From Desulfosudaceae bacterium (GTDB lineage Bacteria > Desulfobacterota > Desulfobacteria > Desulfobacterales > Desulfosudaceae): 64,000 bases of DNA. A program made the translations under genes and the position numbers. The stretch is taken from assembly GCA_963674745.2 (NCBI GenBank), contig CAXXDV010000003.1, forward strand, positions 2,656,853-2,720,852. Direction: 5' to 3'. Position 1 is the stretch's first letter. Each line of letters starts with the position of its first letter. The notes beneath the pieces are model-generated. The model searched no databases. It was given only the letters and a program-made list of their open reading frames with translations, and was not told the origin of the DNA. Positions 48,944 through 64,000 of this stretch are shown here, piece by piece.

Positions 48944-49116
48944 AACAGCCCCTCCCTTCACCCGAATCAAACTGGGTCCCTCTCCCGTGGATGGCATTTA
49001 CTGCGGATCTTTTTCAAATCAGAGATATTGACATGACTTTCTCTACCATGATAATGCCGAACCACAGTCAATAACGAACCCTAAAACATCAAAACCTTCT
49101 CATATGAAAGAAAGCC

Positions 49117-50193
49117 ATGGAAGGCAAGTTATCGCTTCAGGCAACACAGTTTTTAGCGGCTATCGGCCGATTATTCAAATCCCGAATCGCTCTTGAAAAT
49201 GCTTACCTGCTGCAGGAGAATAAAATCCTGCGCAGCAAAATTGGCAAGCGCGTTCCATTGACAGACGCGGAACGCCGGATTCTGGTCAGCGTTGGTATGC
49301 CCATAAAGGATCGGCTGGCCCAGATCATCTCTATTGTAAAACCCGAGACTTTGCTGGCCTTGCACCGGCGCATGAAAAAAGCCAAGTGGACGTATGATAA
49401 TACCCGCAAAAAACCTGGACGGCCAAAGACGCCGGAACAAACGGAAAGCCTTGTCCTGCAAATCGCCCATGAAAATAATATTGGCTATACCCGTATCGCC
49501 GGTGAGCTGATGAAACTGGGCCACTGCCTCTCACCCACTACTGTGGCCAACATCTTAAAAAAGCACGGCCTGCCGCCAGCACCTCAACGCAAAGGCCTGC
49601 CTTGGGCAACCTTCATTAAGTCTCATTTGAACGTCATCTGGGCCACCGACTCTTTTACTGAAGAAGTCTGGACGGCAAGAGGCTTGGTTACATTCTACGT
49701 GCTGTTTTTCATTCACCTTGGCACCTGTAGCGTGCATATCGCCGGCTGCACGCCTCACCCGAATGCTGCCTGGATGAAACAGCAGGCCAGAAACCTGTCC
49801 ATGAAACTTGCCGACGACCAGGCGCCCTGCAGGTATATTATTCATGATCGGGATTCAAGTTTTATACCGTTTGATCAAATCATCAAAACCGACGGCATCA
49901 AAATCGTCAAGACACCACCCAAAACGCCTATGTGTAATGCCTATGCCGAACGATTTGTCCGGGAAGCCAGAGAGACTCTGAACAATATCATCCCTTTGGG
50001 GGAAAGGCATTTTCGGCATGTTCTTAAATGTATTGAAACGCATCACAATCAACAACGACCTCACCAGGGTATAAACAATCGCATACCAGACGGGTTTGAT
50101 TTTCCCGACAAACCCGCCGATCCCGAAGACGTTCGCTGCCAACCCATGCTCGGCGGACTGCTTAATCATTACTACGTAAAAAAGGCTGCCTGA
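49117..50193 (+). mobile_element. DDE (rve) integrase-core transposase
   Basis: PGRP, GYTRIAGEL, WATD, IHDRD, N.YAERFV, N.QRPHQG, LGGLL.HY. Confidence 0.85.
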
Positions 50194-50211
50194 TAGCAGC
50201 CTTTACCTCCA

Positions 50212-50420
50212 CGTCATTGCCCGACTTGCCTTGGATGTCATTGCCTGACGCCCACCTCTGTCATTGCCCGGCTTGACCGAGCAATCCAGCAAAACCGACT
50301 GCCATATATATTGAATCCGGCCAATTTTACTCTGGATCATCCGGTCGAGCCGATGACGTGCAGGGGCGTCATTACCCGGCACTTACCACTGTCATTGCCC
50401 GGCATGATCGGGCAATCCAG
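50212..50420. repeat. Cluster of GTCATTGCCCG-N-CGGGCAATCCAG palindromic repeats
   Basis: Several full and partial copies; same family at 47701-47730 and 59010-59740. Confidence 0.8.
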
Positions 50421-50531
50421 TCATCCGACAGGCCAAACAAACCACAAAAACGGATGAGATATTCCTGTCTTTCTCCTTTTAAACCCTCAGCCTGCCTTTT
50501 TTTATCGCCGTATGAATATTTGTATAGTACA

Positions 50532-50700
50532 CGGCAGAATGGGTGCGCTTTTTGCGGGCGCGGCGCAAAAAGGCAAAAACCCTGGAATATACAAATTGAC
50601 CTCCCACCTTGTACATTCCAGGGTTTTTGAGTTTTTTCTGGAATAAGATTGATCCGCTTCCGCTTATCTGTTCCAGAAAAAACCGTCACCCACTAACACA
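50532..50700. other. Conserved structured non-coding element, copy 1
   Basis: Homologous to 59818-59987; three hairpins in a GGGTG/CACCC closing stem, with compensatory changes between copies. Confidence 0.75.
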
Positions 50701-50761
50701 CATGAAACGAGAAAGAACAAATGTGAAAATATAAAGGGCGTTCCCTACTCCGTCTCGTCCC

Positions 50762-51595
50762 CTACTCCGTCTGGATTGTCCCCATCTTTTTATCAAACTG
50801 CTTTATAATATTGTCACTTAAAATATTTTTAATAAATAAATCCATATCAGAAGAAGATTCAACAGTTTGTTCATATACTACGGCTCCCCCGTCAACCTCT
50901 ATGGCTTTAATATTTAAACTAGACTTCTTCATTCCTTGAATTATAAGAGCACCGTTAGCCGCTTTAAGTTTGCCCATTTTTTGTTTGAAGGTTTTTTGCC
51001 GTTTGCTGACAGCAAAAGATTCTTGGAGAAATAGGCATTCTTCAACATATCTTCGTGTAAGAATGGAAATGCCCTCGGTTTTAATAAGACGAGTAATAAA
51101 AAGGGAACTCAGATTATTACAGGGGTCATTTCTTATTATTGATAGATTTATTCCTTTTAATTCTCCATGAACAAATTTTTCGTTGTAATTTTCAATTATT
51201 TTAAAGATAGCATTTTTATTATCCCTGAAACTACTGATCAAATTAGCGCCTTCTTGCATTTGATGAAATATTATTATCCCATTTTTGGCATTTATTATTT
51301 CAGTAGAAATAAATATCTGATTAGAAGAATCTTTACATTTTCTCATAGTTATCAAAAACATCCTATCATCAGCAGTTATTCGTTTATATAACTGCAAAGT
51401 ATCATTAACTTCAAACATTTCGTTGCTTAATTCGCTAAATCCTTTCTCAAGGCATAATTTCTTAATTTCTATTTCCGCCTCAAGGCCACTTGAATTAAAA
51501 TCAAATCCAATAATCAGCTCACCAGCGCTTACATTAATTGCTAACAGAATCATAAGGATAAAAAATGAATAAAGAGTTATAGTTTTCATTTTCAA
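50762..51595 (-). CDS. Putative immunity/partner protein of Rhs tip 1, exported
   Basis: AT-rich; directly downstream of the Rhs tip; signal peptide ending NVSA. Confidence 0.6.
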   Translation of the reverse strand: MKMKTITLYSFFILMILLAINVSAGELIIGFDFNSSGLEAEIEIKKLCLEKGFSELSNEMFEVNDTLQLYKRITADDRMFLITMRKCKDSSNQIFISTEIINAKNGIIIFHQMQEGANLISSFRDNKNAIFKIIENYNEKFVHGELKGINLSIIRNDPCNNLSSLFITRLIKTEGISILTRRYVEECLFLQESFAVSKRQKTFKQKMGKLKAANGALIIQGMKKSSLNIKAIEVDGGAVVYEQTVESSSDMDLFIKNILSDNIIKQFDKKMGTIQTE

Positions 51596-51613
51596 CTTTA
51601 CACCCCTAAATAT

Positions 51614-52432
51614 TTATTGTCCGGTAAGGTAATTGTTCGGTGTTGATTGATATGGTGATGGTTTAATTAGTTTAAGTAGAAAGTTGTGGGTTCTAATTTC
51701 ACCATAATTGAGTTCTGAAACGTATTTTTCACTGGATGAGCTACGATCGACTCCATATAATTCCGCATCAGGATTATATATAGGCGGCATAAATCGTCCA
51801 TTCATTTTTACTATTTCAAGCATGTCATCAGAGTTTACAAACACTTCGAACTTATACTTTTCTGGTACTATAAAAGCGTAATTTCCTTTTTCATTAGTTA
51901 AGCTATAGTAGCAACAATCTCCATCAAGAATATCTAAAAGGACCGTTGCATTTTGCACTGGTGTTAAACGCACCGTATTAAAAATGGCGTTAACTCGACC
52001 TTTTATCACACCATATACTTTGACTTTAAAAATATCCCCGGGTTGAATTAAATCTGGAAGATTATGTCGTCCCGGCGCTGGCTCTTCAAGAGATAACCAT
52101 TGAGGCCAATCGCCTAGTGACAAATTTGACAATTTCTCTTCTTTAATTCTATCAATTAAACCCGATATTGTATCATTACACTCCGCTTCCCATTCTTCCC
52201 AAGTTAATTCATCCGCAGCAATATCACTTCCGTTTTGGACTCGTTTTAGGAGGACTTTAACTATACGATACGAAATCTCCTTCCATAGTCCTATAGGGTC
52301 ATAATAACTAGAAGGAGCATTTACAATGAAACAATATAGATTCAAGCCGCCTGTTTCCTCAATTGGATCCCGATTAATCCATCTTCCCATCTCAGCAGAA
52401 TAGTATCTGTAACCAGATATTACAACGCGCAT
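51614..52432 (-). CDS. Rhs core C-terminus plus variable tip 1 (LysM-like and carboxypeptidase-regulatory-like domains)
   Basis: GYRYYSAEMGRWINRDPIEETGGLNLYCF..N.P..YYDPIGL followed by a unique AT-rich tip. Confidence 0.88.
   Translation of the reverse strand: MRVVISGYRYYSAEMGRWINRDPIEETGGLNLYCFIVNAPSSYYDPIGLWKEISYRIVKVLLKRVQNGSDIAADELTWEEWEAECNDTISGLIDRIKEEKLSNLSLGDWPQWLSLEEPAPGRHNLPDLIQPGDIFKVKVYGVIKGRVNAIFNTVRLTPVQNATVLLDILDGDCCYYSLTNEKGNYAFIVPEKYKFEVFVNSDDMLEIVKMNGRFMPPIYNPDAELYGVDRSSSSEKYVSELNYGEIRTHNFLLKLIKPSPYQSTPNNYLTGQ
52401..52432. other. Candidate recombination (att) site, copy 1
   Basis: TGTAA-CCAGATA-TTACA (52408-52424); DNA identity with copy 2 ends at 52401. Confidence 0.7.
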
Positions 52433-52599
52433 CCCCCCTAAGAAGCTTGTTTTTTGACCCCCCTGGGCTTGCCTGTCAAAGAACGAACTGTTTTAAAAAT
52501 TAGAACATTTTCCCCAATAATGCAAGAACTGACGGCAGTTAAAAAAGGAAAGGTTTCTTTCTTAACTGCCGTTTGCGGATTATGGTTCCGGCCCGGATA

Positions 52600-53511
52600 T
52601 TATAATCCGGGGTGATACTTCTTGTGGATTTCTTTTAAGTCGTTGATGGTAACGCGGGTGTATATCTGTGTGGATTCTAAAGATTCATGGCCAAGCATTT
52701 CTTGAAGATGGCGGATGGGAGCGCCGTTTTTTAGCATATGGGTGGCGCAGGTATGGCGGAACGTGTGGACGGTGATGTTTTGCCGGAGACCGGCCAGGTG
52801 GGCGCACTGCTTGATATTCTTCCAAATGGTATGGGTTTTGATCTGGCCGCCCTTGTCGTTTAAAACAAGCCAGCCCATATCCTTGCCTTTCAGCAGTCCC
52901 GGCCGGATGCCAAGAATATAGGTGTTGATCAGTTCACAGACGTTTGTGCTTAACGGAACGACACGTTCCTTGTTGCCTTTGCCCAGCACCTTGACAAAGC
53001 CTGTCTCAAGTTCAAGGTCATACAGTTTGATATGGCTGAGTTCCGCTCTTCTGATGGCAGTATCATAAAGGATCTCTAACATGATCCGGTCCCGGTAGCC
53101 GCTGTTTGTCCGCATGTCCGGAGCGTTCATGATTTGCTTTATCTCCTGTCGGCTCATGATGGCCCTGGGCAGTCGCCGGGGCTCTTTGGGCAGCTTGATG
53201 CCTGATCCGGGATCGGATATAAGATAATCTTTTTCTTTTAAGTACCGGGTAAACAGCATGACAGTGCTCAAACTTTTTGACTGGGTCCGGGCTGACAGGG
53301 GCGTTCCCTTGGCTGTTACGGTAAAGGCAAGTTCCTGCTGGTAGTCTTCCAGCACCTCCCGGCTGAGGTCTTCAATATTTGTAAGGCCGTTATCTTCAAG
53401 GTAACGGGCAAAACGGCGCAATATAAACCGTGCTCCCCTGACCGTAAAGTATGACCGGCCCTGGGCCTGCATGTGGGTCAGGTATGCCGGGATAATAGTG
53501 TTTATGTTCAC
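52600..53511 (-). CDS. Xer-type tyrosine recombinase B, copy 1
   Basis: TAIRRAE, GKGNKER, HTFRH, LGH, TQIYT; GTG start with GGAGG RBS overlapping the upstream TGA. Confidence 0.92.
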   Translation of the reverse strand: MNINTIIPAYLTHMQAQGRSYFTVRGARFILRRFARYLEDNGLTNIEDLSREVLEDYQQELAFTVTAKGTPLSARTQSKSLSTVMLFTRYLKEKDYLISDPGSGIKLPKEPRRLPRAIMSRQEIKQIMNAPDMRTNSGYRDRIMLEILYDTAIRRAELSHIKLYDLELETGFVKVLGKGNKERVVPLSTNVCELINTYILGIRPGLLKGKDMGWLVLNDKGGQIKTHTIWKNIKQCAHLAGLRQNITVHTFRHTCATHMLKNGAPIRHLQEMLGHESLESTQIYTRVTINDLKEIHKKYHPGL

Positions 53512-54419
53512 GGTTCCTCCTGTGTGTTGGGGTGGGTTCTGGTGTGGGTGTCCTTGATCTCGACGGGCATGACTTTTGTATATTGCTGGGTGGTCTTTAA
53601 ATACTTGTGGCCCAGCAGTTTCTGGATATAGCGGATGTCCGCGCCCTGCTGAAGCATGTGGGTCGCGCATGATCGCCGGAACGCATGAAGCCCCACCGGC
53701 TCTTTTATCCCGGCTTTTCTGCGATAAGTATCAAGGCTTACGCGCAGGCTTCCCCAGGTCAGGGGACGGCCTTCAACCGTCAAAAACAGTTTTCTTTCCC
53801 TGGGGTTTCTTCGCGCGTGCTTTGGCCGGATGTGTTCAAGGTATTCTTTTAGATAGTGGACGGCGGATTTGCCCAGGGGAACAACACGTTGTCTTTTGCC
53901 TTTGCCTTTGCGGATATAAAGCACGTTGTCCCTTGTGTCCACGTCATATATATGCAGGTTTAAAAGTTCGTTTGACCGGATGCCGGTGGAGTACAGCACT
54001 TCCATGACGGCCCGATCCCGGATCTGGGCGTTTAAAGAAAGGTTTGGCTGATCAAAAAGGAGTTTGATTTCTTGTCTTGTTAACACCCGGCCGATGGTTC
54101 TTTTTTTGCGTCCGGTCTCCTTGATCCCTTCGGCCGGGTTGATTAAAAGCCGGTGGGTCTCTGTCAGATGTTCAAACAGCCGCTTGACAGCCCTGATCCT
54201 TATGGCCCTGGTCTCGGCGGCTTTGGGCAGCCCCATGACCTCCGCCTGGTACTCCTGCATGATCCGGTCATTAACCTGCCTGATGTCCGTTATTTCTATT
54301 TTGGTAAGAAAGGAAACAAAACATTTTAAGCCGTATTGATAAGCCTCTATCGTTTTAGGGGCATAGCCCCTGACTTTAAGATATTGCTTGAACTCCCCTA
54401 CAACTACGACGACCTCCAT
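53508..54419 (-). CDS. Xer-type tyrosine recombinase A, copy 1
   Basis: STGIRSNE, GKGKRQR, HAFRR, LLGH, TQQYT. Confidence 0.92.
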   Translation of the reverse strand: MEVVVVVGEFKQYLKVRGYAPKTIEAYQYGLKCFVSFLTKIEITDIRQVNDRIMQEYQAEVMGLPKAAETRAIRIRAVKRLFEHLTETHRLLINPAEGIKETGRKKRTIGRVLTRQEIKLLFDQPNLSLNAQIRDRAVMEVLYSTGIRSNELLNLHIYDVDTRDNVLYIRKGKGKRQRVVPLGKSAVHYLKEYLEHIRPKHARRNPRERKLFLTVEGRPLTWGSLRVSLDTYRRKAGIKEPVGLHAFRRSCATHMLQQGADIRYIQKLLGHKYLKTTQQYTKVMPVEIKDTHTRTHPNTQEEP

Positions 54420-54459
54420 TTATACCCCCTCTCCCCCCCCGCTGTTTCTTGCTCCACAA

Positions 54460-54579
54460 CCTCGTAGTTGTTCGGCTTATGGTTTAACATCAATGCCTTA
54501 AGTGCCATTTTGCCGCCCCTCGTAGTTCCCTCGTAGTGGCTTTATTTACCCTCGTAGTTGCCCGGATTACCCTCGTAGT
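54460..54579. repeat. Five CCTCGTAGT direct repeats (iteron-like), copy 1
   Basis: Starts at 54460, 54518, 54529, 54550, 54571; an inverted partial copy AACTACGA lies near 54402. Confidence 0.85.
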
Positions 54580-54582
54580 CCG

Positions 54583-57240
54583 CTATTTTTTCTCTTTCTT
54601 CATCAGCTTTTTGATTTCTTCTGTCGGGGTCAGATTCAAATAAAACCGGGTATTGTCCTCGCCCTGGCCCTTGTAGTTCAAGGCGTAAGCGTATTCCTTG
54701 CCGCGAGCCCCGAACCGGACCAGCAGGTATTCCAGGTCTTCCAACTGGCTGATGTGGGCGCGGATCTGCCAGTCCGTCCAGTTGATTGATTCTCTGATCT
54801 GCCGCCGGGTAAAAAAGACTTCATCAACCGGAAGCTTCTGCTTTTTGGATATGTCCCTGACCATTTTGTAAATCCCGTCAAGTAAAAGCCGGGAAGGCCG
54901 GGCCAGCTCGTCCAGGCTCTGGCCCAGGACGTCATTGGCCAGGGTGTTGGCCTTGTCGATATCGTTTAAGGTAACTTCGATGTACTCCACGGCTTTTCCT
55001 TCAACCTGCACGGTCTTTGCCTGCCTCTGGTACTGGTGCAAAAAGGCAATGGCTTCGATCAGGCCCAGGTACTTGTCATGGTCCCTTCTGCTGATCAGCG
55101 ATTTTGTGGGATAGGACAGATACGGCGTAAAAGGATTGACTACGGCCACGGGCTTTAACATCTGCTGGGCGATCTGGTGGATACGTTCGATATGGGTTGA
55201 TTTAGTCCGGTTGACCAGGCCCTCCAACGTTCTGGCCTGCTTCTGCTTGTCATGGATGGCGGCCGTCATCTGCTCGGACTCGTCGATTGATAAAAAGATA
55301 AACCGGGAAGCTGTCTCGGCGTCGATGTCGGCCGCCGTGGTGGTCAGCATGACCGAGACCGGGCCTTCAACAGTATACGTTTCGGTCTTCATCTTGCCGG
55401 TGCCGGGGTCCTTTCCCGTGGCCGCCACCCTGATCCGGCCTTCTGATTGGATATTGCGGATAGAATAAGCAGCCCCGCCCACGCCCGCCTCCTCCTCGAT
55501 GGCCAGGATTTTATTTTTTAACGATCCTTCTTCCTTGTAAAAAAGGGCCTGGTCGGTCACGCGGGTGTATTTTTCTTGATGGCTTTCCGGAACAAAGCGG
55601 AGGATAGCGTTCTGCAATGTCGATTTGCCTGCCCCGCTTCTGGACTGGATCAACGTGGACAAGGGCTTGGCCAAAAGCCGGGACACGGCCGTCAGATAAC
55701 ACACGATCTTGTTTGTCTCCTCGCCCACAATGCCCATGATCAGTAAGGCGTCCAAAATAGCCTTGAACATGTCCGGGGATTTTAAAAAGGTCTCTGCGGC
55801 CTTCTTTTCTGTCTGGCTGGGCTCGATGGCCTTGGCCTCTTTTTCTTTGGGCTGGTAGTTCTCTACCAGGGTCAACAGCTTGCCGATGTCTTCCTTGACC
55901 AGCTCCTCGGCCGCTCCGAACAGATCGGCGCAGAGTTTCGCGAACCAGAGCCGGGACCGGGAAGAATAAAGATCAATGGTGGTCAGTTCAAACGGCAGGC
56001 TGCCCTCAACGTCCGGGGATGCCTTGATCACGGCTTTTAACTGGGTTTCTCCTCGGCAGATACCCTTGACATGGTATTGCCGTTCTCCGTATCCCACGAT
56101 AAAGCCGCTTTCCGTGTGTTTGAATAACGTTTTTTTGCGGGGATAGACATGGTCGGAGTGCTCCAATGATTTTGGGTTGGCCTGTTTTAACAAAGCCTCG
56201 AACTGCTCCGGCGTATGCCGGTTAAAGTAGATGTTCACGTCTTTTACCGGCAGCTCGACCGTATAGGGCGTGATCTGTTTATCTTTTAGCTGCAAGCCTA
56301 CGGCCTGGGCAGCTTTTTTGCCGGGGTCATCGGCATCAAACACAAGATAGGCTTCCTTTATTCTGCCTTTGCAGTATGCCAGATGATCGTCAATAAGGCC
56401 GTTGGTGCCATACAACGGCATGACGTTTTTAAAGCCCTGGTCGTAAAGGGTCAGGGCGTCAATGACAGACTCTGTTAAAAGAATAGCCTGGGAGCGTTTG
56501 ACGGCCTGACGGTTGACCAGGCCGGACCGGCTGCCCGGCAAGTACAAATGGGTCAGGTCGCAGGATTCGTCTATGTTGCGGCCGTAAAGATTGACCACGG
56601 CCCCGCTCCCGTCATAGAGCGGGAACACGACACAGTTTAAAAAGCGTTCGTTTCCTTTGGCGTTTAAGATGCCGATGGTTTTTAAATCACTGGTGATCTG
56701 ATCGTCATCCGGCAGGATGGACAATAAGGTGCCGTTGACATAGCCTGCCCCGAAGTCCTTTAAAGACTGGTTGCGGGTAATGCCTCTTTTGTTCTTGAGG
56801 TAATCCAGGCCCTGGGTGGTTTCTTCCAGGGTGTGCTGGTAATAGGCGATCACGCGGGCCAGGAGTTTCTTTTGTTTGACGGTCAGAGGTTTTGTATTGT
56901 CGGGATTTTCTTTGGGTTGTGGTTGTGGTGGGGGTTTTCTGGTTGGGGTTTTGCGCGGGGTCGTCATTTCATTGGCGGATAGTATCCGCACGGCCTCGGT
57001 AAAGTCCACCCGGTCAAACAGTTCGATAAACCGGATCACGTCCCCGGCTGCGCCGCAGCCAAAGCACTGCCAGAGGTTTGTTTTTGGATTGATGGAAAGG
57101 GAAGGATTTTTATCGTCATGGAAGGGACACAGGCCGAAGTAACCCCGGCCGTTCTTTTTCAACTTGATGCCCCTGGCCTCGGCCAGGGCCACCATGTCAA
57201 CAGTGGCTTTGATATGGTCTATCTTTTCTTGTTCTATCAT
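54583..57240 (-). CDS. DnaG-like primase-helicase (CHC2 zinc finger, Toprim, P-loop NTPase)
   Basis: CPFHDDKNPS...CFGC; ESVIDAL and FDADD Toprim motifs; SRSGAGKS Walker A. Confidence 0.9.
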   Translation of the reverse strand: MIEQEKIDHIKATVDMVALAEARGIKLKKNGRGYFGLCPFHDDKNPSLSINPKTNLWQCFGCGAAGDVIRFIELFDRVDFTEAVRILSANEMTTPRKTPTRKPPPQPQPKENPDNTKPLTVKQKKLLARVIAYYQHTLEETTQGLDYLKNKRGITRNQSLKDFGAGYVNGTLLSILPDDDQITSDLKTIGILNAKGNERFLNCVVFPLYDGSGAVVNLYGRNIDESCDLTHLYLPGSRSGLVNRQAVKRSQAILLTESVIDALTLYDQGFKNVMPLYGTNGLIDDHLAYCKGRIKEAYLVFDADDPGKKAAQAVGLQLKDKQITPYTVELPVKDVNIYFNRHTPEQFEALLKQANPKSLEHSDHVYPRKKTLFKHTESGFIVGYGERQYHVKGICRGETQLKAVIKASPDVEGSLPFELTTIDLYSSRSRLWFAKLCADLFGAAEELVKEDIGKLLTLVENYQPKEKEAKAIEPSQTEKKAAETFLKSPDMFKAILDALLIMGIVGEETNKIVCYLTAVSRLLAKPLSTLIQSRSGAGKSTLQNAILRFVPESHQEKYTRVTDQALFYKEEGSLKNKILAIEEEAGVGGAAYSIRNIQSEGRIRVAATGKDPGTGKMKTETYTVEGPVSVMLTTTAADIDAETASRFIFLSIDESEQMTAAIHDKQKQARTLEGLVNRTKSTHIERIHQIAQQMLKPVAVVNPFTPYLSYPTKSLISRRDHDKYLGLIEAIAFLHQYQRQAKTVQVEGKAVEYIEVTLNDIDKANTLANDVLGQSLDELARPSRLLLDGIYKMVRDISKKQKLPVDEVFFTRRQIRESINWTDWQIRAHISQLEDLEYLLVRFGARGKEYAYALNYKGQGEDNTRFYLNLTPTEEIKKLMKKEKK

Positions 57241-57496
57241 ATCTCGTCTCCCGATTTCTGAGTTGGTTAAAAAGGATGTCGCGTAAATGATTCAAGGACT
57301 CTCTGAACTGGACCGGATTTACCAAAGCATGGCCGTCCCGGTAGGCCCGGTCATGCTCGACCAGGTCCGGACCGGTGAACATAAAAGACGCGATCTGTTT
57401 GCCGTTGCCGTTAAAGCGGATGTCGTCCAGCCGCCCGCCCATGCACAGGTAAAACGCCCCGCGAAAGATGTCGGTTGTTTCTAACGTGGATGTCAT
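57197..57496 (-). CDS. Small hypothetical protein upstream of the primase
   Basis: AGGAGG RBS; overlaps the primase start. Confidence 0.65.
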   Translation of the reverse strand: MTSTLETTDIFRGAFYLCMGGRLDDIRFNGNGKQIASFMFTGPDLVEHDRAYRDGHALVNPVQFRESLNHLRDILFNQLRNRETRYDRTRKDRPYQSHC

Positions 57497-57758
57497 ACGG
57501 ATCACCTCCTTTCATTTGATTTTTTGCGGGAGATGAGATAGAAAAAGAAAAGGTTTTCAAAGGGTTTTGGCCCTTTGAGTTCCGATCTCGGCCATCAACC
57601 TCGTCCGCCAAGACAAAGTGGTTGATGGCCTTTTCTTCGCAAACCCCCGTCAATTAACTGTCAAGCAAAAAAAATGATGGATTTTATTTTTAAATCGTGA
57701 TTAACTTTATAGTGATTCACTTATAATGTCAAGCACAAAAATAAGTGTTTCCTAAAGT

Positions 57759-58154
57759 ATGAGATATAATATGTTCATGAAAAACAAAGATAAAAAATTC
57801 CCCAAGCCGATGATAATCGGCGATGAGACGTTTGGTCAGAGGCTTGCGAGGATAAGAAAAGAAAAAGGCTATACTCAGGTTGAGTTGTCAAAAAAAATGG
57901 ATATGATCCAGGTCCTGATTTCTGACTATGAACATGACAAACTCCGACCACATCACGAGATAATCGCCCGCTTTGCAAAAGCCCTTAGTGTATCTGCCGA
58001 CGCGCTTCTTGGGCTTGAGAAAGACGCGCAGAGCCAAAATACACCAAGCCTTAAAATTCAACGAAGAATGAATAAAATCGAACAGCTTCCGCCATCTCAA
58101 CAAAGGGCTCTCTTGCAAACCATTGATGCCTTTGTTAAAGGTGTCAGCAAATAA
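57759..58154 (+). CDS. Xre-family HTH regulator
   Basis: FGQRLARIRKEKGYTQVELS...ISDYE...ALSVSADALLG; divergent from the primase operon. Confidence 0.88.
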   Translation: MRYNMFMKNKDKKFPKPMIIGDETFGQRLARIRKEKGYTQVELSKKMDMIQVLISDYEHDKLRPHHEIIARFAKALSVSADALLGLEKDAQSQNTPSLKIQRRMNKIEQLPPSQQRALLQTIDAFVKGVSK

Positions 58155-58170
58155 GAAACCGAGGTGATTT

Positions 58171-58401
58171 ATGGAAAAATTTATCAATATCCACGTTGAG
58201 AAGTTGCCGGAAGGTGTTTATTTGGCAACATCCGATGATGTATCCGGACTGGTGGCCCAGGGACGGACGGCAACCGAAGCGTTAGAGATCGCGCGTGATG
58301 TGGCCCGTAAACTCCTTGAGGCAAAAGCCGAGAGAAGCGGCCAGATTAATCTTTCTGTAATTGGCGATTCTTTTGATTATCCCCTGATTGTGAACGCATA
58401 A
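58171..58401 (+). CDS. hicB: Short HicB-like antitoxin
   Basis: EGVYLATS.DVSGLVAQGRT..EALEIARD. Confidence 0.8.
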   Translation: MEKFINIHVEKLPEGVYLATSDDVSGLVAQGRTATEALEIARDVARKLLEAKAERSGQINLSVIGDSFDYPLIVNA

Positions 58402-58402
58402 C

Positions 58403-58626
58403 ATGGGACGATTAGCGGATTCCGATATAAAGAGATCACAAAACGATTAAAGGCACACGGGTTTTTATTCGATCGTCAGGCCGCCGGAAGCCATGAGATC
58501 TGGTATAACCCGCAAACTGATCGATATACCACCGTTCCCAATCATCCGGGAGAGATGCCCGAAGGTACGTTGAGGGCGATCTTAAAACAAGCCAATATTA
58601 CCCCTGACGAATTTCTGAAAAAATAA
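58403..58626 (+). pseudogene. hicA: HicA toxin, frameshifted near codon 6
   Basis: One extra G in GCGGATTC restores MGRLAGFRYKEITKRLKAHGF.FDRQAAGSHEIWY...VPNHPGEMPEGTLRAILKQA. Confidence 0.85.
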
Positions 58627-58755
58627 AAACAAAGGTAGGTCTCCGTGCTCGGGCTCCAGCCACGCTTATTATATTTATTGGCGTGGCTTCCGCTTCCTGC
58701 GCGCGGAGCCCGGTCCTGATTTTATATCTATTCCCACCCTCCACCCTAAAAGGAA

Positions 58756-58949
58756 GCCGCCGCGCGTTTATTTGGTTGTTCCCTGCCTGTCATGCCGTCT
58801 GCATCTTCTTACATAATCAAACCTTAATTATCGGTCGTTGCATCCATTTTAAAAAACCATAAGGCAGCAACAACCGATAATTCTGATTATGTAATCAGAC
58901 GCAAGCGTCACGCCAGGCAGGGGCGGACAGCCCCGGCAACAGCGGCGGC
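58756..58949. other. Long imperfect hairpin containing two inverted dif-like sites
   Basis: ACAACCGATAA-TTCTGA-TTATGTAATCA (58870-58897) and, on the minus strand, ACGACCGATAA-N11-TTATGTAAGAA (58838-58806). Confidence 0.65.
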
Positions 58950-59009
58950 GTCTGTTCTTTTCATTCTCCCGGCCGCCCTCCCCTGGATAAGGTAACGGTC
59001 AATTTTATT

Positions 59010-59740
59010 CTGGATTGCCCGGTCAAGCCGGGCAATGACGCGGAAGGAAGCCAAACCGAACCCGTGGCGACATAAAAACCGGGGTTTTTCGGCAAGGGTA
59101 AGGTATGGGTCCGGCCGGGATCGTCGTTTCTGCGGGCAATGAGGGGACCGGATTCTTTTGTCATCCCCTCGGCTTGAGCTTCCTTATGTCATCCTCCGGC
59201 TTGTCCGGGGGATCCAGGTAAAACGGAAGGCCGGACAGATTCCGGTAATGGGCGAAGGATTTTCTTTTTTAATTGCCGCTGCGAGCGGAAGGAGCGGAGC
59301 CCGCCGGTAGTTTGGCGGGCAAAGCCTGAGCACGCAGCAGAAAACAACAACCCGTAAAAGAGTTAAAGCCGAGGCAGAGGGGTGAGCCCGCCCGGCGGAG
59401 ACAGGGCTGGCGCGGGCCTTGCCCAACCGGGCAATTAAAAAGAAAAAAGGATGAAGACGGAAGACGGACGATTTTTAAAGAAAGAACCTACAAAAGCAAG
59501 GGCCGTGACAGCCCTGGCGAGGGGGAGAGGCGCGGGGGGCGGGCTTAAGATTGATCGCGTGGGGCGCACCTTTTTCTGCCGGCGCCGGATATTTTGCAAG
59601 GCAGGACTCGAAGCCACGGCAGAGCCTGGCGCGCGGCCTTGCATTTCCGCCGGTCATCCTCCGGCCTTTCTCCCTCGTCATTACCCGACTTGATCGGGTA
59701 ATCCATTATTCTGGATCCCCTGGTCAAGCCAGAGGATGAC
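59010..59740. repeat. GTCAT...ATCCAG palindromic repeats in both orientations
   Basis: CTGGATTGCCCGGTCAAGCCGGGCAATGAC (~59010), GTCATCCTCCGGCTTGTCCGGGGGATCCAG (~59188), GTCATTACCCGACTTGATCGGGTAATCCA (~59677), CTGGATCCCCTGGTCAAGCCAGAGGATGAC (~59711). Confidence 0.8.
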
Positions 59741-59817
59741 CAAAGGCATGCAAGGCGCGTGACAGGCGGGGCATACATCAAAACCCACTTACCCGCACGG
59801 CTACAGGCGAGGACGGC

Positions 59818-59987
59818 CGGCAGAATGGGTGCGCTTCGGGGGGCGTGGCCCCGAAGGCAAAAACCCTGGAATATACAAATTGACCTCCCACCTTGTACAT
59901 TCCAGGGTTTTTGAGTTTTTTTGACCATAAGATTGATCCCATTCCCTATGGCCGTTGGGCAAAAAAACCGTCACCCACTCACACACA
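59818..59987. other. Conserved structured non-coding element, copy 2
   Basis: Homologous to 50532-50700, at the same position just downstream of the immunity gene. Confidence 0.75.
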
Positions 59988-60028
59988 AAGACAATCATAT
60001 AAGCATAGTCAGCCCCTATTTGCCCCCT

Positions 60029-60751
60029 TTATACTTTAGGAATATTTTCTTCTAAATAGGGCAAAATGACATCACATATTTTGAGAAATTTATATAAATT
60101 CTCTTCTAAGTTTTCCGCGGAATCAAATTTAAATCCTTGTGTGTATGCATTCGGGTATAGCAAAGAAAAATCAATTTGCAATAATGGTTTTTCAAAACCA
60201 AAATTAAAATGTAGTTTAGAAATAATACTTCCACGCTCGATTAAAATATAAATTCTATTGCCATTTGCTATTTTCTTAGAAAATTTAGTTTCGCCTTTGA
60301 ATGAATACCCTTCATTGAATTTATATTCAGGTTTATTAGCCGCAAAAACTTTTTTTAATATACTATTAACATTAATTTTAATTTGTACAACACTTTTAGA
60401 GCGTTCCTTTTTTCGAAAATAATCTTCATCCCCTTTATTTTCTTTTAACCACTTAATTACTTCTTCGCGATTGTTACTGATTTCTTGAGTAATCTCTTTA
60501 GGGAAAGGTTCGTAATCCCTTAATAACCTATATCGTAAATCTTTATTAAAATATTTAATTTCAGAAATTAAAAATTTATTCTTTAATTTTTCATCGATTT
60601 CATCATAATACTTCATAAAATATTTAATATAGCTTCTATTATCTATAAGTTCTACTGGATATTCCTCAAAAGGAAATTCTTTATATAGAATTTTTCTTTG
60701 CATTTCAGAAAACAACTTTACCATTTTTTCCTCGAGGCTTTTATTCTCCAT
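60029..60751 (-). CDS. Putative cytoplasmic immunity protein of Rhs tip 2
   Basis: Very AT-rich; downstream of a nuclease-like tip; no signal peptide. Confidence 0.6.
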   Translation of the reverse strand: MENKSLEEKMVKLFSEMQRKILYKEFPFEEYPVELIDNRSYIKYFMKYYDEIDEKLKNKFLISEIKYFNKDLRYRLLRDYEPFPKEITQEISNNREEVIKWLKENKGDEDYFRKKERSKSVVQIKINVNSILKKVFAANKPEYKFNEGYSFKGETKFSKKIANGNRIYILIERGSIISKLHFNFGFEKPLLQIDFSLLYPNAYTQGFKFDSAENLEENLYKFLKICDVILPYLEENIPKV

Positions 60752-60891
60752 ACTTATGTATTCCTATATTTTTATTAATTTTATTATCCCCCATGTCTTT
60801 TATATTTTCACAAACTATTGTGGCATCTTCAAATTTTTATAATTTATTTTCATTGTATGTTTTACATTAATCACAATCATTTAAAAACAAT

Positions 60892-61680
60892 TTAGGGGAC
60901 AGGGATTCTAATACCACCAGGCAATGGAAAATATTTTTCTAATAATTTCCTAGTTTCTTCCCCTGCTTCAATAAATTCTTTTTCCAGTGCTTTGACTGAT
61001 TCGCTTTGATTTTGACTATTTGATTCTTCTAATCTCAATCCATAAAAAATAAAGCCTTTTCTACCATAGTTTTCACCAGGATAAACCCTAATCGAAAATT
61101 CATTACCAAACATATCTTTCACGTTATAATCATCAGGTAAATCTTCGTGCGGTGTGTTAAAAAAGTCTCTTGAGTCACCCATGCTATAACACTTATCGGT
61201 GATCTGTTCTAAATATCTTTCAATCTGCGAATCATCATTATCCCAAAAACTTGGTGCTTTATGTGTAATTGGCTTTATTTCCCAAAGATAGTTTTTGTCC
61301 ATATCTCTAGAAATTATATCAGGTCTTCGCATTGATATAAAACCATATGTTTTTAATGGTCTATCGTATTGCAAATTATTATATTTAGTATTAACATCAT
61401 CAATATAATCCATGATTGCAGTATGGCTAACTGTCCCAAGAAAGCCGGTATAAAATTTGATAAAACGACCAACAGGGTTTAAATAGGAAGCGTTTGACTC
61501 AAGTTCAACTTCAAAAGGATAAGGATCAGCCATCAGGCCAAGAATATCAAAATAATTTATAGAATTATTTAAGGCAAAGGAATAAAGATTTCTACCCCCT
61601 CTTTCCCCCAACGGATCCCTACTCAACCACCTCCCCAATTCCGCCGAGTAGTATCTGTAACCAGATATTACAACGCGCAT
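60892..61680 (-). CDS. Rhs core C-terminus plus variable tip 2 (PD-(D/E)xK nuclease-like toxin)
   Basis: GYRYYSAELGRWLSRDPLGERGGRNLYSF..N.....DILGL; tip carries H...RPDII...WEIKP...QIERY. Confidence 0.85.
   Translation of the reverse strand: MRVVISGYRYYSAELGRWLSRDPLGERGGRNLYSFALNNSINYFDILGLMADPYPFEVELESNASYLNPVGRFIKFYTGFLGTVSHTAIMDYIDDVNTKYNNLQYDRPLKTYGFISMRRPDIISRDMDKNYLWEIKPITHKAPSFWDNDDSQIERYLEQITDKCYSMGDSRDFFNTPHEDLPDDYNVKDMFGNEFSIRVYPGENYGRKGFIFYGLRLEESNSQNQSESVKALEKEFIEAGEETRKLLEKYFPLPGGIRIPVP
61649..61680. other. Candidate recombination (att) site, copy 2
   Basis: Identical to 52401-52432; core TGTAA-CCAGATA-TTACA at 61656-61672. Confidence 0.7.
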
Positions 61681-61873
61681 CCCCCCTAAGAAGCTTGTTT
61701 TTTGACCCCCCTGGGTTTGCCTGTCAAAGAACGGATTGTTTTAAAAATTAGAACAATTTACCCAATAATGCAAGGATTGACGAAGAACCGGCAAAGGATT
61801 GACGGCAGTTAAAAAAGGAAAGGTTTCTTTCTTAACTGCCGTTCACGGCTTATGGTTCCGCACGTGGATTCCG

Positions 61874-62785
61874 TTATGAACCGGGATGATACTTCTTGTG
61901 GATTTCTTTTAAGTCGTTGATGGTAACGCGGGTGTATATCTGTGTGGATTCTAAAGATTCATGGCCAAGCATTTCTTGAAGATGGCGGATGGGAGCGCCG
62001 TTTTTTAGCATATGGGTGGCGCAGGTATGGCGGAACGTGTGGACGGTGATGTTTTGCCGGAGACCGGCCAGGTGGGCGCACTGCTTGATATTCTTCCAAA
62101 TGGTATGGGTTTTGATCTGGCCGCCCTTGTCGTTTAAAACAAGCCAGCCCATATCCTTGCCTTTCAGCAGTCCCGGCCGGATGCCAAGAATATAGGTGTT
62201 GATCAGTTCACAGACGTTTGTGCTTAACGGAACGACACGTTCCTTGTTGCCTTTGCCCAGCACCTTGACAAAGCCTGTCTCAAGTTCAAGGTCATACAGT
62301 TTGATATGGCTGAGTTCCGCTCTTCTGATGGCAGTATCATAAAGGATCTCTAACATGATCCGGTCCCGGTAGCCGCTGTTTGTCCGCATGTCCGGAGCGT
62401 TCATGATTTGCTTTATCTCCTGTCGGCTCATGATGGCCCTGGGCAGTCGCCGGGGCTCTTTGGGCAGCTTGATGCCTGATCCGGGATCGGATATAAGATA
62501 ATCTTTTTCTTTTAAGTACCGGGTAAACAGCATGACAGTGCTCAAACTTTTTGACTGGGTCCGGGCTGACAGGGGCGTTCCCTTGGCTGTTACGGTAAAG
62601 GCAAGTTCCTGCTGGTAGTCTTCCAGCACCTCCCGGCTGAGGTCTTCAATATTTGTAAGGCCGTTATCTTCAAGGTAACGGGCAAAACGGCGCAATATAA
62701 ACCGTGCTCCCCTGACCGTAAAGTATGACCGGCCCTGGGCCTGCATGTGGGTCAGGTATGCCGGGATAATAGTGTTTATGTTCAC
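61874..62785 (-). CDS. Xer-type tyrosine recombinase B, copy 2
   Basis: Protein identical to copy 1 except the last residue (S vs L). Confidence 0.92.
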   Translation of the reverse strand: MNINTIIPAYLTHMQAQGRSYFTVRGARFILRRFARYLEDNGLTNIEDLSREVLEDYQQELAFTVTAKGTPLSARTQSKSLSTVMLFTRYLKEKDYLISDPGSGIKLPKEPRRLPRAIMSRQEIKQIMNAPDMRTNSGYRDRIMLEILYDTAIRRAELSHIKLYDLELETGFVKVLGKGNKERVVPLSTNVCELINTYILGIRPGLLKGKDMGWLVLNDKGGQIKTHTIWKNIKQCAHLAGLRQNITVHTFRHTCATHMLKNGAPIRHLQEMLGHESLESTQIYTRVTINDLKEIHKKYHPGS

Positions 62786-63693
62786 GGTTCCTCCTGTGTG
62801 TTGGGGTGGGTTCTGGTGTGGGTGTCCTTGATCTCGACGGGCATGACTTTTGTATATTGCTGGGTGGTCTTTAAATACTTGTGGCCCAGCAGTTTCTGGA
62901 TATAGCGGATGTCCGCGCCCTGCTGAAGCATGTGGGTCGCGCATGATCGCCGGAACGCATGAAGCCCCACCGGCTCTTTTATCCCGGCTTTTCTGCGATA
63001 AGTATCAAGGCTTACGCGCAGGCTTCCCCAGGTCAGGGGACGGCCTTCAACCGTCAAAAACAGTTTTCTTTCCCTGGGGTTTCTTCGCGCGTGCTTTGGC
63101 CGGATGTGTTCAAGGTATTCTTTTAGATAGTGGACGGCGGATTTGCCCAGGGGAACAACACGTTGTCTTTTGCCTTTGCCTTTGCGGATATAAAGCACGT
63201 TGTCCCTTGTGTCCACGTCATATATATGCAGGTTTAAAAGTTCGTTTGACCGGATGCCGGTGGAGTACAGCACTTCCATGACGGCCCGATCCCGGATCTG
63301 GGCGTTTAAAGAAAGGTTTGGCTGATCAAAAAGGAGTTTGATTTCTTGTCTTGTTAACACCCGGCCGATGGTTCTTTTTTTGCGTCCGGTCTCCTTGATC
63401 CCTTCGGCCGGGTTGATTAAAAGCCGGTGGGTCTCTGTCAGATGTTCAAACAGCCGCTTGACAGCCCTGATCCTTATGGCCCTGGTCTCGGCGGCTTTGG
63501 GCAGCCCCATGACCTCCGCCTGGTACTCCTGCATGATCCGGTCATTAACCTGCCTGATGTCCGTTATTTCTATTTTGGTAAGAAAGGAAACAAAACATTT
63601 TAAGCCGTATTGATAAGCCTCTATCGTTTTAGGGGCATAGCCCCTGACTTTAAGATATTGCTTGAACTCCCCTACAACTACGACGACCTCCAT
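62782..63693 (-). CDS. Xer-type tyrosine recombinase A, copy 2
   Basis: Protein identical to 53508-54419. Confidence 0.92.
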   Translation of the reverse strand: MEVVVVVGEFKQYLKVRGYAPKTIEAYQYGLKCFVSFLTKIEITDIRQVNDRIMQEYQAEVMGLPKAAETRAIRIRAVKRLFEHLTETHRLLINPAEGIKETGRKKRTIGRVLTRQEIKLLFDQPNLSLNAQIRDRAVMEVLYSTGIRSNELLNLHIYDVDTRDNVLYIRKGKGKRQRVVPLGKSAVHYLKEYLEHIRPKHARRNPRERKLFLTVEGRPLTWGSLRVSLDTYRRKAGIKEPVGLHAFRRSCATHMLQQGADIRYIQKLLGHKYLKTTQQYTKVMPVEIKDTHTRTHPNTQEEP

Positions 63694-63733
63694 TTATACC
63701 CCCTCTCCCCCCCCGCTGTTTCTTGCTCCACAA

Positions 63734-63853
63734 CCTCGTAGTTGTTCGGCTTATGGTTTAACATCAATGCCTTAAGTGCCATTTTGCCGCCCCTCGTAGT
63801 TCCCTCGTAGTGGCTTTATTTACCCTCGTAGTTGCCCGGATTACCCTCGTAGT
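63734..63853. repeat. Five CCTCGTAGT direct repeats, copy 2
   Basis: Same as 54460-54579. Confidence 0.85.
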
Positions 63854-63856
63854 CCG

Positions 63857-64000
63857 CTATTTTTTCTCTTTCTTCATCAGCTTTTTGATTTCTTCTGTCG
63901 GGGTCAGATTCAAATAAAACCGGGTATTGTCCTCGCCCTGGCCCTTGTAGTTCAAGGCGTAAGCGTATTCCTTGCCGCGAGCCCCGAACCGGACCAGCAG
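63857..64000 (-). CDS. 3' end of primase-helicase, copy 2 (partial)
   Basis: Matches 54583-54726. Confidence 0.9.
   Translation of the reverse strand: MLVRFGARGKEYAYALNYKGQGEDNTRFYLNLTPTEEIKKLMKKEKK

Follow-up and report, generated by a model that had tools for sequence, protein, structure and literature searches.

The window analyzed here, 64,000 nucleotides (nt) from the genome of a Desulfosudaceae bacterium, carries on its minus strand an element of 9,248 bp (about 52415 to 61662) that encodes two Xer-like tyrosine recombinases and a primase-helicase. At its left end the element bears a C-terminal toxin tip of the Rhs type with a presumed immunity gene, and at its right end (52400 to 52480) it abuts a second, displaced Rhs tip. 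An earlier note, made from the letters of this DNA alone, had proposed that the right-end junction is a hybrid attachment (att) site. We think it likely that the junction is the right attachment site (attR) of an integrative element that inserts into the Gly-Tyr-Arg-Tyr-Tyr (GYRYY) codons of Rhs genes and swaps their toxin tips.

Organization of the locus

The window ends at the end of its contig (C3), inside a second copy of the primase gene. Read along the minus strand from that end, the locus opens with the right part of one element (element 1; 61874 to 64000, cut by the contig end) in the order primase C terminus, recA, recB, hairpin, and leader. There follow tip1 (262 residues; 60892 to 61680) and imm1 (240 residues; 60029 to 60751), which are the cargo of the complete element (element 2); imm1 is presumed to be an immunity gene. 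Behind imm1 lie a conserved box of ~170 nt, ~1.6 kb of structured noncoding DNA, a divergently transcribed XRE-type helix-turn-helix regulator (57759 to 58154, plus strand), orf102 (57197 to 57505), and a primase-helicase of 885 residues (54583 to 57240). Element 2 closes with its own recombinase genes, recA′ (53508 to 54419) and recB′ (52600 to 53517), an AT-rich hairpin just past the recB′ stop (52532 to 52572), and a leader of ~130 nt. Downstream are the displaced tip2 (272 residues; 51614 to 52432), imm2 (277 residues; 50762 to 51595; its own start lies 18 nt past the tip2 stop), the conserved box again, and an insertion sequence (IS) transposase gene. Element 2 stands in tandem with a second, partial copy.

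Both tips have the makings of orphan Rhs tips, which carry the C-terminal part of the core domain at their start and an immunity-sized open reading frame (ORF) behind. Their first 49 residues match positions 33 to 76 of TIGR03696, the 76-position profile of the Rhs-associated core, above its cut-off (E values of ~1e-12 to 1e-13; 1e-13 for tip1 and 1.4e-12 for tip2), and the ORFs behind them encode 240 and 277 residues; the toxin and immunity roles are presumed. The tips and immunity genes have a guanine-plus-cytosine (GC) content of 25 to 36%, against 50 to 54% for the element body, and the bins at 60200 to 61399, which cover imm1 and most of tip1, have 25 to 31%.

The recombinases of the two elements are 100% identical as proteins. 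RecA comprises 303 residues and matches Xer-like profiles, and its stop overlaps the start of recB; in element 2, a probable GTG start of recB′ overlaps the recA′ stop within a longest ORF that extends to 53670. Catalytic residues are kept in both proteins, those of RecB′ as invariant columns in the alignment. The XerC and XerD equivalog profiles were not reached (best scores of 233 to 281 bits against cut-offs of 330 to 371), and both genes are borne by the element and duplicated with it. The primase-helicase contains a CHC2 zinc ribbon, a Toprim domain, and a P-loop part, and orf102 is kept beside the primase gene in relatives.

Element DNA and Rhs DNA meet at a fixed boundary

The minus-strand ATGs at 52432 and 61680 mark two junctions that share a perfect run of 67 nt. 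The run spans 52467 to 52401, or −35 to +31 relative to the A of the ATG, and recurs 9,248 nt higher at 61649 to 61715; it contains the G-run and A-run of the leader, the ATG, and the core site, and identity stops exactly at 52401. It closes a longer repeat in which 64000 to 61581 and 54726 to 52333 are 97.4% identical over 2,420 nt. The minus strand from 52445 to 52395 reads TAGGGGGG ATG CGC GTT GTA ATA TCT GGT TAC AGA TAC TAT. As the earlier note had described, both tips begin in identical DNA, TAGGGGGG-ATGCGCGT-TGTAA-TATCTGG-TTACA-GATACTA, which encodes MRVVISGYRYY. Neither the 67-nt repeat nor the constant place of the boundary comes anywhere near what chance would give; the TGTAA/TTACA pair within the repeat does.

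Past the junction, the DNA identity of tip1 and tip2 is 67% from +33 to +92, 53% from +93 to +152, and 38% from +153 to +200. The first four codons that differ do so synonymously (TAT/TAC, TCT/TCG, GCT/GCG, and GAG/GAA), and to that extent the divergence is mostly synonymous, as had been claimed. The claim does not extend to the first 50 codons, of which 17 are identical, 15 synonymous, and 18 nonsynonymous.

Rhs genes of the genome fall into two families. Family II (..ETG.YYYGYRYYSSELGRW..), to which both tips of the window belong, has full-length genes at C2:127560-130376, with RHS repeats, and at C3:~44.6 kb. The junction DNA shares homology with these genes only from the GG of its Gly codon onward, and the leader upstream of that point is unrelated: the C2 gene reads ..TTATTATGGCTACAGATACTAC.. 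and the leader reads ..GTAATATCTGGTTACAGATACTAC... This homology, together with the fixed junction, bears out the proposal of a hybrid att-type junction between a recombinase-bearing element and Rhs codons.

The junction keeps one register in relatives

Of 401 genomes sampled from the order, 15 contained a recB relative (E ≤ 1e-60); of 401 from the phylum, 5 did (E ≤ 1e-75). The window's own genome is counted in both. A further 248 metagenome stretches contained a recB relative, and 79 of these loci were kept, of which 66 extend 250 nt or more past recB. Members of the family are few but widely distributed. An Rhs C-terminal motif lies within 2 kb downstream of recB in 32 of the 66 loci.

Scattered junctions in related elements would have counted against the proposal of the earlier note; those next to recB proved to be fixed. 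When aligned, 34 junctions (32 distinct) fell into one register, in which a leader with the G-run and A-run is followed by RRTAY-N10-RTAYTWY. That pattern was the analysis's own filter, and the loci were therefore retested with an anchor in protein sequence only, G-Q-Y-Y-D. The same ungapped leader, ending ..GCATCGGAATATAT directly before the Rhs codons, was present in 22 of 27 anchored loci (21 distinct); the remaining five have a longer, genuine core sequence in its place. An exact 22-mer of the window leader was not found in metagenome_contigs. At six loci (L085, L087, L091, L121, L123, and L022), an Rhs fragment with genuine core (..NNLRFPGQYYD..) and no leader lies ~1.1 kb downstream of recB.

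A same-strand Rhs motif was present upstream of recB in 12 of 27 loci with at least 5.5 kb of upstream sequence. Among the eight loci with a full 10 kb, seven have a same-strand Rhs C-terminal motif at 5.7 to 8.9 kb, and in six of those seven the motif closes a long open Rhs frame of 381 to 1,439 residues. A genome of the same genus (G129) has the entire order: an Rhs gene of 3,150 residues, an immunity-sized gene, XRE, orf102, primase (89% identical), recA, recB, and a leader joined to an orphan tip, after which come another orphan and then housekeeping genes. A metagenome contig of 7,598 bp (L056), about one element long, has a leader-tip junction at its start and recB at its end, which makes it a circular form or else a tandem array that was collapsed.

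The element moves as one unit in a relative

A recB relative, 58% identical, occurs twice (L013 and L014) in one metagenome-assembled genome (MAG) labelled 'uncultured delta proteobacterium'; a recB scan of genome_contigs matched only these two loci. They share an identical block of 6,884 bp that starts at the R-A-R-Y-Y-D-P codons of an Rhs tip, ends ..CGGAATACTTAGG, and contains the tip, a gene of 130 residues, a primase gene, and both recombinase genes. In L013, the block stands at the end of an ORF of 1,295 residues with RHS repeats, and behind it lie another tip, which is displaced, and a small gene. In L014, the block splits an unrelated ORF with InlB-B repeats (PF18998); without the block, the flanks rejoin in frame with 0 stops, and the repeat unit continues across the joint. 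Only AGG(G)CAA is common to the four junctions. The moving unit therefore has tip and immunity gene on its left and recombinases and leader on its right. These junctions place the crossover in a core of ~7 nt inside the Rhs codons. The sequence 'MRRYVIRARYYDP' in L014 was tried as a conserved leader peptide and dropped; it belongs to the flanking target gene.

Tips could also be exchanged by homologous recombination only, as in classical C-terminal displacement, with the recombinases serving movement of the element elsewhere. Consistent with that, the two tips of the window are ~80% identical in DNA for ~80 nt past the junction, and homologous recombination with circular intermediates was proposed by Jackson et al. 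in 2009 (PMC2935791, in the parts drawn on here). Homologous recombination does not, however, account for a core fragment of fixed length before every orphan or for a non-Rhs leader that abuts at a single nucleotide register in 34 junctions. Moreover, the L014 target gene shares only ~6 to 7 nt with the site. We consider it extremely unlikely that homologous recombination alone built these junctions and favor site-specific integration of the element.

Geometry of the core site

The proposed core has a central stretch of 10 nt (N10) between two unlike half-sites. The left half-site, TGTAATAT (52417 to 52424), is element DNA with the family consensus C-R-G-A-A-T-A-T and is ungapped in the 21 distinct protein-anchored leaders. 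The N10 reads CTGGTTACAG (52407 to 52416). The right half-site, ATACTAT (52400 to 52406), is made by the R-Y-Y codons of the Rhs core motif. A second copy of the core site, at 61648 to 61672, joins the right end of element 1 to the left end of element 2 and is equivalent to the attachment site of the free element (attP).

The position of the crossover was narrowed by eight loci in which both the left attachment site (attL) and attR are present. Their shared core of 8 to 10 nt starts at N10 position 1 to 3 and ends by position 10, stopping short of the right half-site in L049 and L055; these limits place the overlap within N10 positions 3 to 10. The three kinds of leader can be written in one frame as left part, 3 nt, core, and right part: GTAATA, TCT, GGTTACA, and GATACTAC in the window family; GGAATA, CTT, AGGGCAA, and GGTATTAT in the MAG family; and AGAATA, TAT, CCGGGCC, and AATACTAC before family I tips. 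From these comparisons we infer that the core in the window is GTAATAT-CTGGTTACAG-ATACTAY, with strand exchange in GGTTACA(G) (52414 to 52407), equivalent to the AGG(G)CAA of the L013/L014 crossover.

The earlier note had assigned the core differently, to the inverted pair TGTAA (52424 to 52420) and TTACA (52412 to 52408), which would serve as half-sites for strand exchange in the 7-nt spacer TATCTGG. Tyrosine recombinase cores typically have spacers of 7 bp, and the pair is present in both copies of the junction, where it spans the leader/Rhs boundary. Its frequency is that of chance: the 64-kb window has 93 perfect 5/7/5 palindromes (one in ~688 nt), and 20 shuffles average 64. Nor are the arms conserved. 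TTACA is GTACA in L047, the arms are not kept in family I leaders or in the MAG element, and the arm positions read CAGAA / CGGAA and CCGGG / GGGCA in the other leader families. TGTAA overlaps the conserved left half-site and is CAGAA, CGGAA, or CATAA elsewhere. The spacer differs from the main Rhs gene on C2, a presumptive target, at 3 of 7 positions, and the mapped crossovers fall to its right, in the stretch that holds the TTACA arm. Folded as single-stranded DNA, the junction forms TATCTG/CAGATA as its best local stem rather than TGTAA/TTACA (z = −1.5; 16 of 200 shuffles fold as well). We conclude that the pair does stand at the boundary in both copies and that its role as the recombination core is highly unlikely.

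The half-sites proposed here in its stead have a conserved dyad of their own, AATAY-N10-RTAYTAY, which holds at 6 of 7 positions in the window and at 7 of 7 in L047, the closest relative (recB 73% identical), where GTAATAT-N10-ATATTAC is perfect. Dyads this short are common by chance, and the right arm is coding. Another candidate, a GCAT-N8-ATGC dyad, was rejected; although some family I leaders match it, the window does not, and it would put the crossover left of its placement in L013/L014.

The element end supplies an in-frame ATG

Element DNA supplies the ATG at 52430 to 52432, which starts the 272-residue ORF of tip2, and six codons (M R V V I S, the Met included in that string) before the Rhs-homologous DNA begins. 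Of 34 leaders, 8 have an ATG at this codon (both copies in the window, L047, L049, L050, L051, L053, and L055). An in-frame stop after the ATG position is present in 3 of 34, 21 of 34 have no canonical start, and 5 have only more distant starts. As these leaders indicate, the in-frame ATG is a lineage trait. The G-run before it abuts the ATG with almost no spacing and is weak evidence for a ribosome-binding site, because it is kept in leaders with or without the ATG. The proposal that the element end donates a start to the displaced tip thus holds for the ATG and the six codons and loses force for their function and for the G-run as a ribosome-binding site. Translation from 52432 is conceivable, and we regard it as doubtful. 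With a start of its own, imm2 depends on being transcribed and not on translation of the tip.

Upstream of the A-run, a conserved CTTTGACA box contains TTGACA at 52473 to 52478. The box occurs in many leaders at a variable distance from the A-run. A sigma-70 scan agreed with the earlier remark that no −10 element matches this TTGACA. A fixed sigma-70 promoter was therefore dropped, given the missing −10 partner and a distance to the A-run that varies from 17 to 24 nt among leaders.

Resident Rhs genes and orphan arrays

On contig C2, behind the tip of the full-length Rhs gene and a gene of 121 residues, lies a box (C2:130805-130975) that is 99.4% identical to 50702-50532, followed by 830 nt to the contig end that are 77% identical to the interior of element 2. 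In the simplest reading, C2 would join the end of C3 through a collapsed element copy, giving the array Rhs-core|tip0-imm0-element 1|tip1-imm1-element 2|tip2-imm2. The second family II gene (C3:44-49 kb) has GYRYY codons that read GGTTACAGATAT, a perfect match to the proposed overlap, and recombinase remnants lie ~3.5 kb downstream of it (C3:48223-48406).

Family I (..FPGQYYDxETGLHYN..RYYDP..) forms orphan arrays with a homologous leader before each tip. On C1, six leader-bearing tip/immunity cassettes follow a truncated primase-recA-recB. On C3, at 2.40-2.41 Mb, three leader-bearing orphan cassettes stand behind an Rhs gene of 4,454 residues with no recombinase gene there. The C1 region (C1:1408804-1427124) is a third, diverged element in which the primase is missing its first ~113 residues and RecA and RecB are 63% and 55% identical; its six-cassette array is convergent with an Rhs gene of 2,812 residues. 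The cassettes begin with the leader and end in a conserved box of ~40 nt.

Array spacers are of a few recurring types. One of these (C1 near 1419.4 kb and C3 near 2411.5 kb) has ~250 nt of element interior and then switches, within the arm TTTTCTTTTTTAACTGCC, to sequence that normally stands behind the post-recB hairpin. Such a spacer is the product that would be expected from a deletion between two copies of the arm. Other spacers end at differing points, so that a second site-specific system is possible but not shown.

Arrays of this kind raise the alternative of an integron-like platform, in which a stationary recombinase pair captures free tip-immunity cassettes next to recB and the leader is the cassette-borne site. 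The C1 and C3 arrays and their recurring spacers fit such a platform, as do published precedents, namely, rAID-1 (Ross et al., bioRxiv 10.1101/471110) and polyimmunity loci beside XerC/D-type genes (Zhang et al. 2012, PMC3482391), as they appear in the parts of those reports used here. Integrons likewise capture cassettes site specifically beside a tyrosine recombinase and store them in arrays. In L013/L014, however, cargo, primase, and both recombinases move as one unit, so the whole replicon is mobile; each cassette of the window has a full element body of its own, and cassettes are joined in frame to the host gene. The integron-integrase profiles were not reached (126.8 and 107.9 bits for TIGR02249, cut-off 265; 62 and 52 for NF011946, cut-off 435), and no attC-like imperfect palindrome was seen at cassette ends, where no dedicated attC model was run. 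We judge an integron-like platform unlikely and retain integration of the whole element as the better account.

Further features of the element and its surroundings

The conserved box at 50532 to 50702 recurs at 59818-59987, at the C2 position given above, and in the orphan arrays on C1 and C3; it (..GTGTGTTAGTGGGTGACGGTTTTTTTGCCCAACGRCCATA..) stands behind unrelated immunity genes in every cassette of this genome. The hairpin past recB′, GGCAGTTAAGAAAGAAA..TTTCCTTTTTTAACTGCC, folds with z = −6.4, and the same hairpin follows recB in many relatives. A second copy lies at 61806-61846. The left part of element 2 also has both the GGCAGTTAAGAAAGAAA and TTTCCTTTTTTAACTGCC arms, at 59432-59452 and 59258-59278, ~150 nt apart, and the change of sequence in some orphan-array spacers falls precisely inside this arm.

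Within the structured noncoding DNA, an imperfect hairpin of ~130 nt (58790-58935, minus strand; z = −7.7) could be an origin, a transfer site, or an RNA. A structure of the same type, in opposite orientation, lies between recB and the leader in L016, L018, L019, L032, and L037. Small ORFs at 58171-58640 (plus strand), between this hairpin and the XRE gene, may form a small addiction or regulatory module; one of them, of 76 residues (58171-58401, plus strand), had no match in NCBIfam or PHROGs and was not scanned against Pfam.

Pfam and NCBIfam gave no match for the toxin parts of tip1 and tip2, imm1, imm2, or orf102. A PDB sequence search with the two toxin parts gave no credible match, and Rfam gave none in 49000-64000 at E ≤ 0.1. 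Both tips keep, ~40 residues past the junction, a motif of the DPxGL type, at which Rhs proteins are cleaved to free the tip. Directly downstream of tip2 and imm2 is the IS-type transposase gene (rve_3 integrase core; 49117-50193, plus strand), with related copies elsewhere on C3.

Discussion

Taken together, the data support a model in which the attachment site is the set of codons at the conserved end of the Rhs core (G-Y-R-Y-Y) and a toxin tip with its immunity gene travels at the left end of the element. By integrating into a resident Rhs gene, the element would fuse the incoming tip to the Rhs shell and move the old tip and immunity gene behind its own right end. In the window, two such elements would stand in tandem; the core copy at 61680 would join element 1 to element 2, as attP, and the copy at 52432 would join element 2 to the displaced tip2. 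It is probable that both Xer-like recombinases work together on the core, made up of GTAATAT, the N10 CTGGTTACAG, and ATACTAY at the Y-Y codons. The primase-helicase may replicate an excised circle, the window copy may be active, and the donated ATG may be used.

Several observations weigh against this model. A short shared core together with precise insertion, as expected of an att site, was found in the relatives (L013/L014 and the eight attL/attR pairs) and not for the window copy, and the direct two-site evidence comes from a single relative with a recB only 58% identical. A search for public runs listed none with RNA. Contigs of three public runs with the same organism label, covering 49000-64000, contained no excised circle or empty site for the window copy. 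They had no 61662-52414 joint, and unitigs break at 52430 and 61678, where the repeat begins; one joint that goes back 9307 (59985 to 50679, side 31) lies within the repeated box behind the immunity genes. The left junction of the array is on another contig, and the C2-C3 link is one that we infer rather than one that was assembled. The C2 gene has GGCTACA where the leader has GGTTACA. The half-sites are short, the right one is constrained by Tyr codons anyway, and 7/10/7 dyads with at most one mismatch number 139 in the window against 85 in shuffles. No Rhs motif lies within 2 kb downstream of recB in 34 of the 66 metagenome loci, several of which have 2 to 6 kb of downstream sequence. Finally, no element body separates the cassettes of the C1 and C3 orphan arrays, so that a further process is needed to explain them.

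One such process would make the element a self-replicating 'toxin-tip shuttle', an integron for polymorphic toxins in which integration of the whole replicon is followed by removal of the vehicle. The Xer-like pair would integrate the replicon at the Y-Y codons of any compatible Rhs gene, exchange the weapon, and archive the old tip and immunity gene. A second recombination, between the TTTTCTTTTTTAACTGCC arms after the cargo and after recB, would then remove the stretch from XRE to recB and leave a cassette with its leader. If true, this scheme would explain the orphan arrays with leaders on C1 and C3 and would give the C-terminal displacement model the integrase-driven circular intermediate missing from it. 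We offer it as a speculation that is, on balance, improbable.

Polymorphic toxins, including Rhs proteins, are known to diversify by swaps of C-terminal tips that leave arrays of orphan tips and immunity genes. The accepted model for Rhs (PMC2935791) invokes homologous recombination with hypothetical circles and states that no integrase is known to accompany Rhs. There, as in our model, a tip with a piece of core on a circular intermediate fuses to the core, shunts the old tip and immunity gene downstream, and builds orphan arrays. That model relies on homologous recombination and predicts core fragments of variable length, whereas a recombinase pair and a nucleotide-fixed junction are found here.

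Other systems share traits with the element. rAID-1 (bioRxiv 10.1101/471110) and polyimmunity loci (PMC3482391), in the parts of those reports used here, have a Xer-like recombinase upstream of co-oriented low-GC cassettes with repeated spacers. The tip and immunity pairs of the window have one of the features by which rAID-1 loci are recognized (at least two co-oriented downstream genes with at most 41% GC), at 25 to 36% GC, and the C1 array has six cassettes. As published, in the same parts, rAID-1 has a single recombinase, a predominance of immunity genes, and neither a primase nor a mapped site, and is confined to Bacteroidales; the window element has two recombinases and a primase-helicase, complete tips, a site in Rhs codons, and relatives labelled delta proteobacteria. 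Integrase-like genes are also recurrent neighbors of Rhs genes in bee-gut bacteria (Steele et al. 2017, PMC5727410), where they were suggested to help capture toxins; the parts of that paper used here define no site, junction, or element.

As in the XerC/XerD-dif system and the elements that make use of Xer (IMEX), two paralogous Xer-like recombinases likely act here as a pair on a site with unlike half-sites. In contrast, the pair in the window is encoded by the element, scores below the XerC/XerD cut-offs, and targets Rhs coding sequence rather than dif. Phages and islands that integrate at the 3′ end of a gene, such as tRNA or tmRNA genes, carry in attP a copy of the 3′ part of the target that keeps it intact. 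Unlike theirs, the replacement 3′ end carried by the element differs, with a new toxin domain and immunity gene, so that the function of the gene changes.

A search of a library of papers found no description of an element that integrates into Rhs codons. The boundary, which the earlier note located correctly, appears to be a genuine attachment junction, and the Rhs-targeting, tip-carrying integrative elements to which it belongs form a family that is apparently undescribed. The model offers a defined site of 25 nt, two candidate enzymes, and a predicted crossover, all of them directly testable, and it may explain why assemblies break at these loci. With a dedicated mobile element that uses conserved Rhs coding sequence as its attachment site, one site-specific event would be enough to give the cell a new weapon without loss of the old immunity gene.

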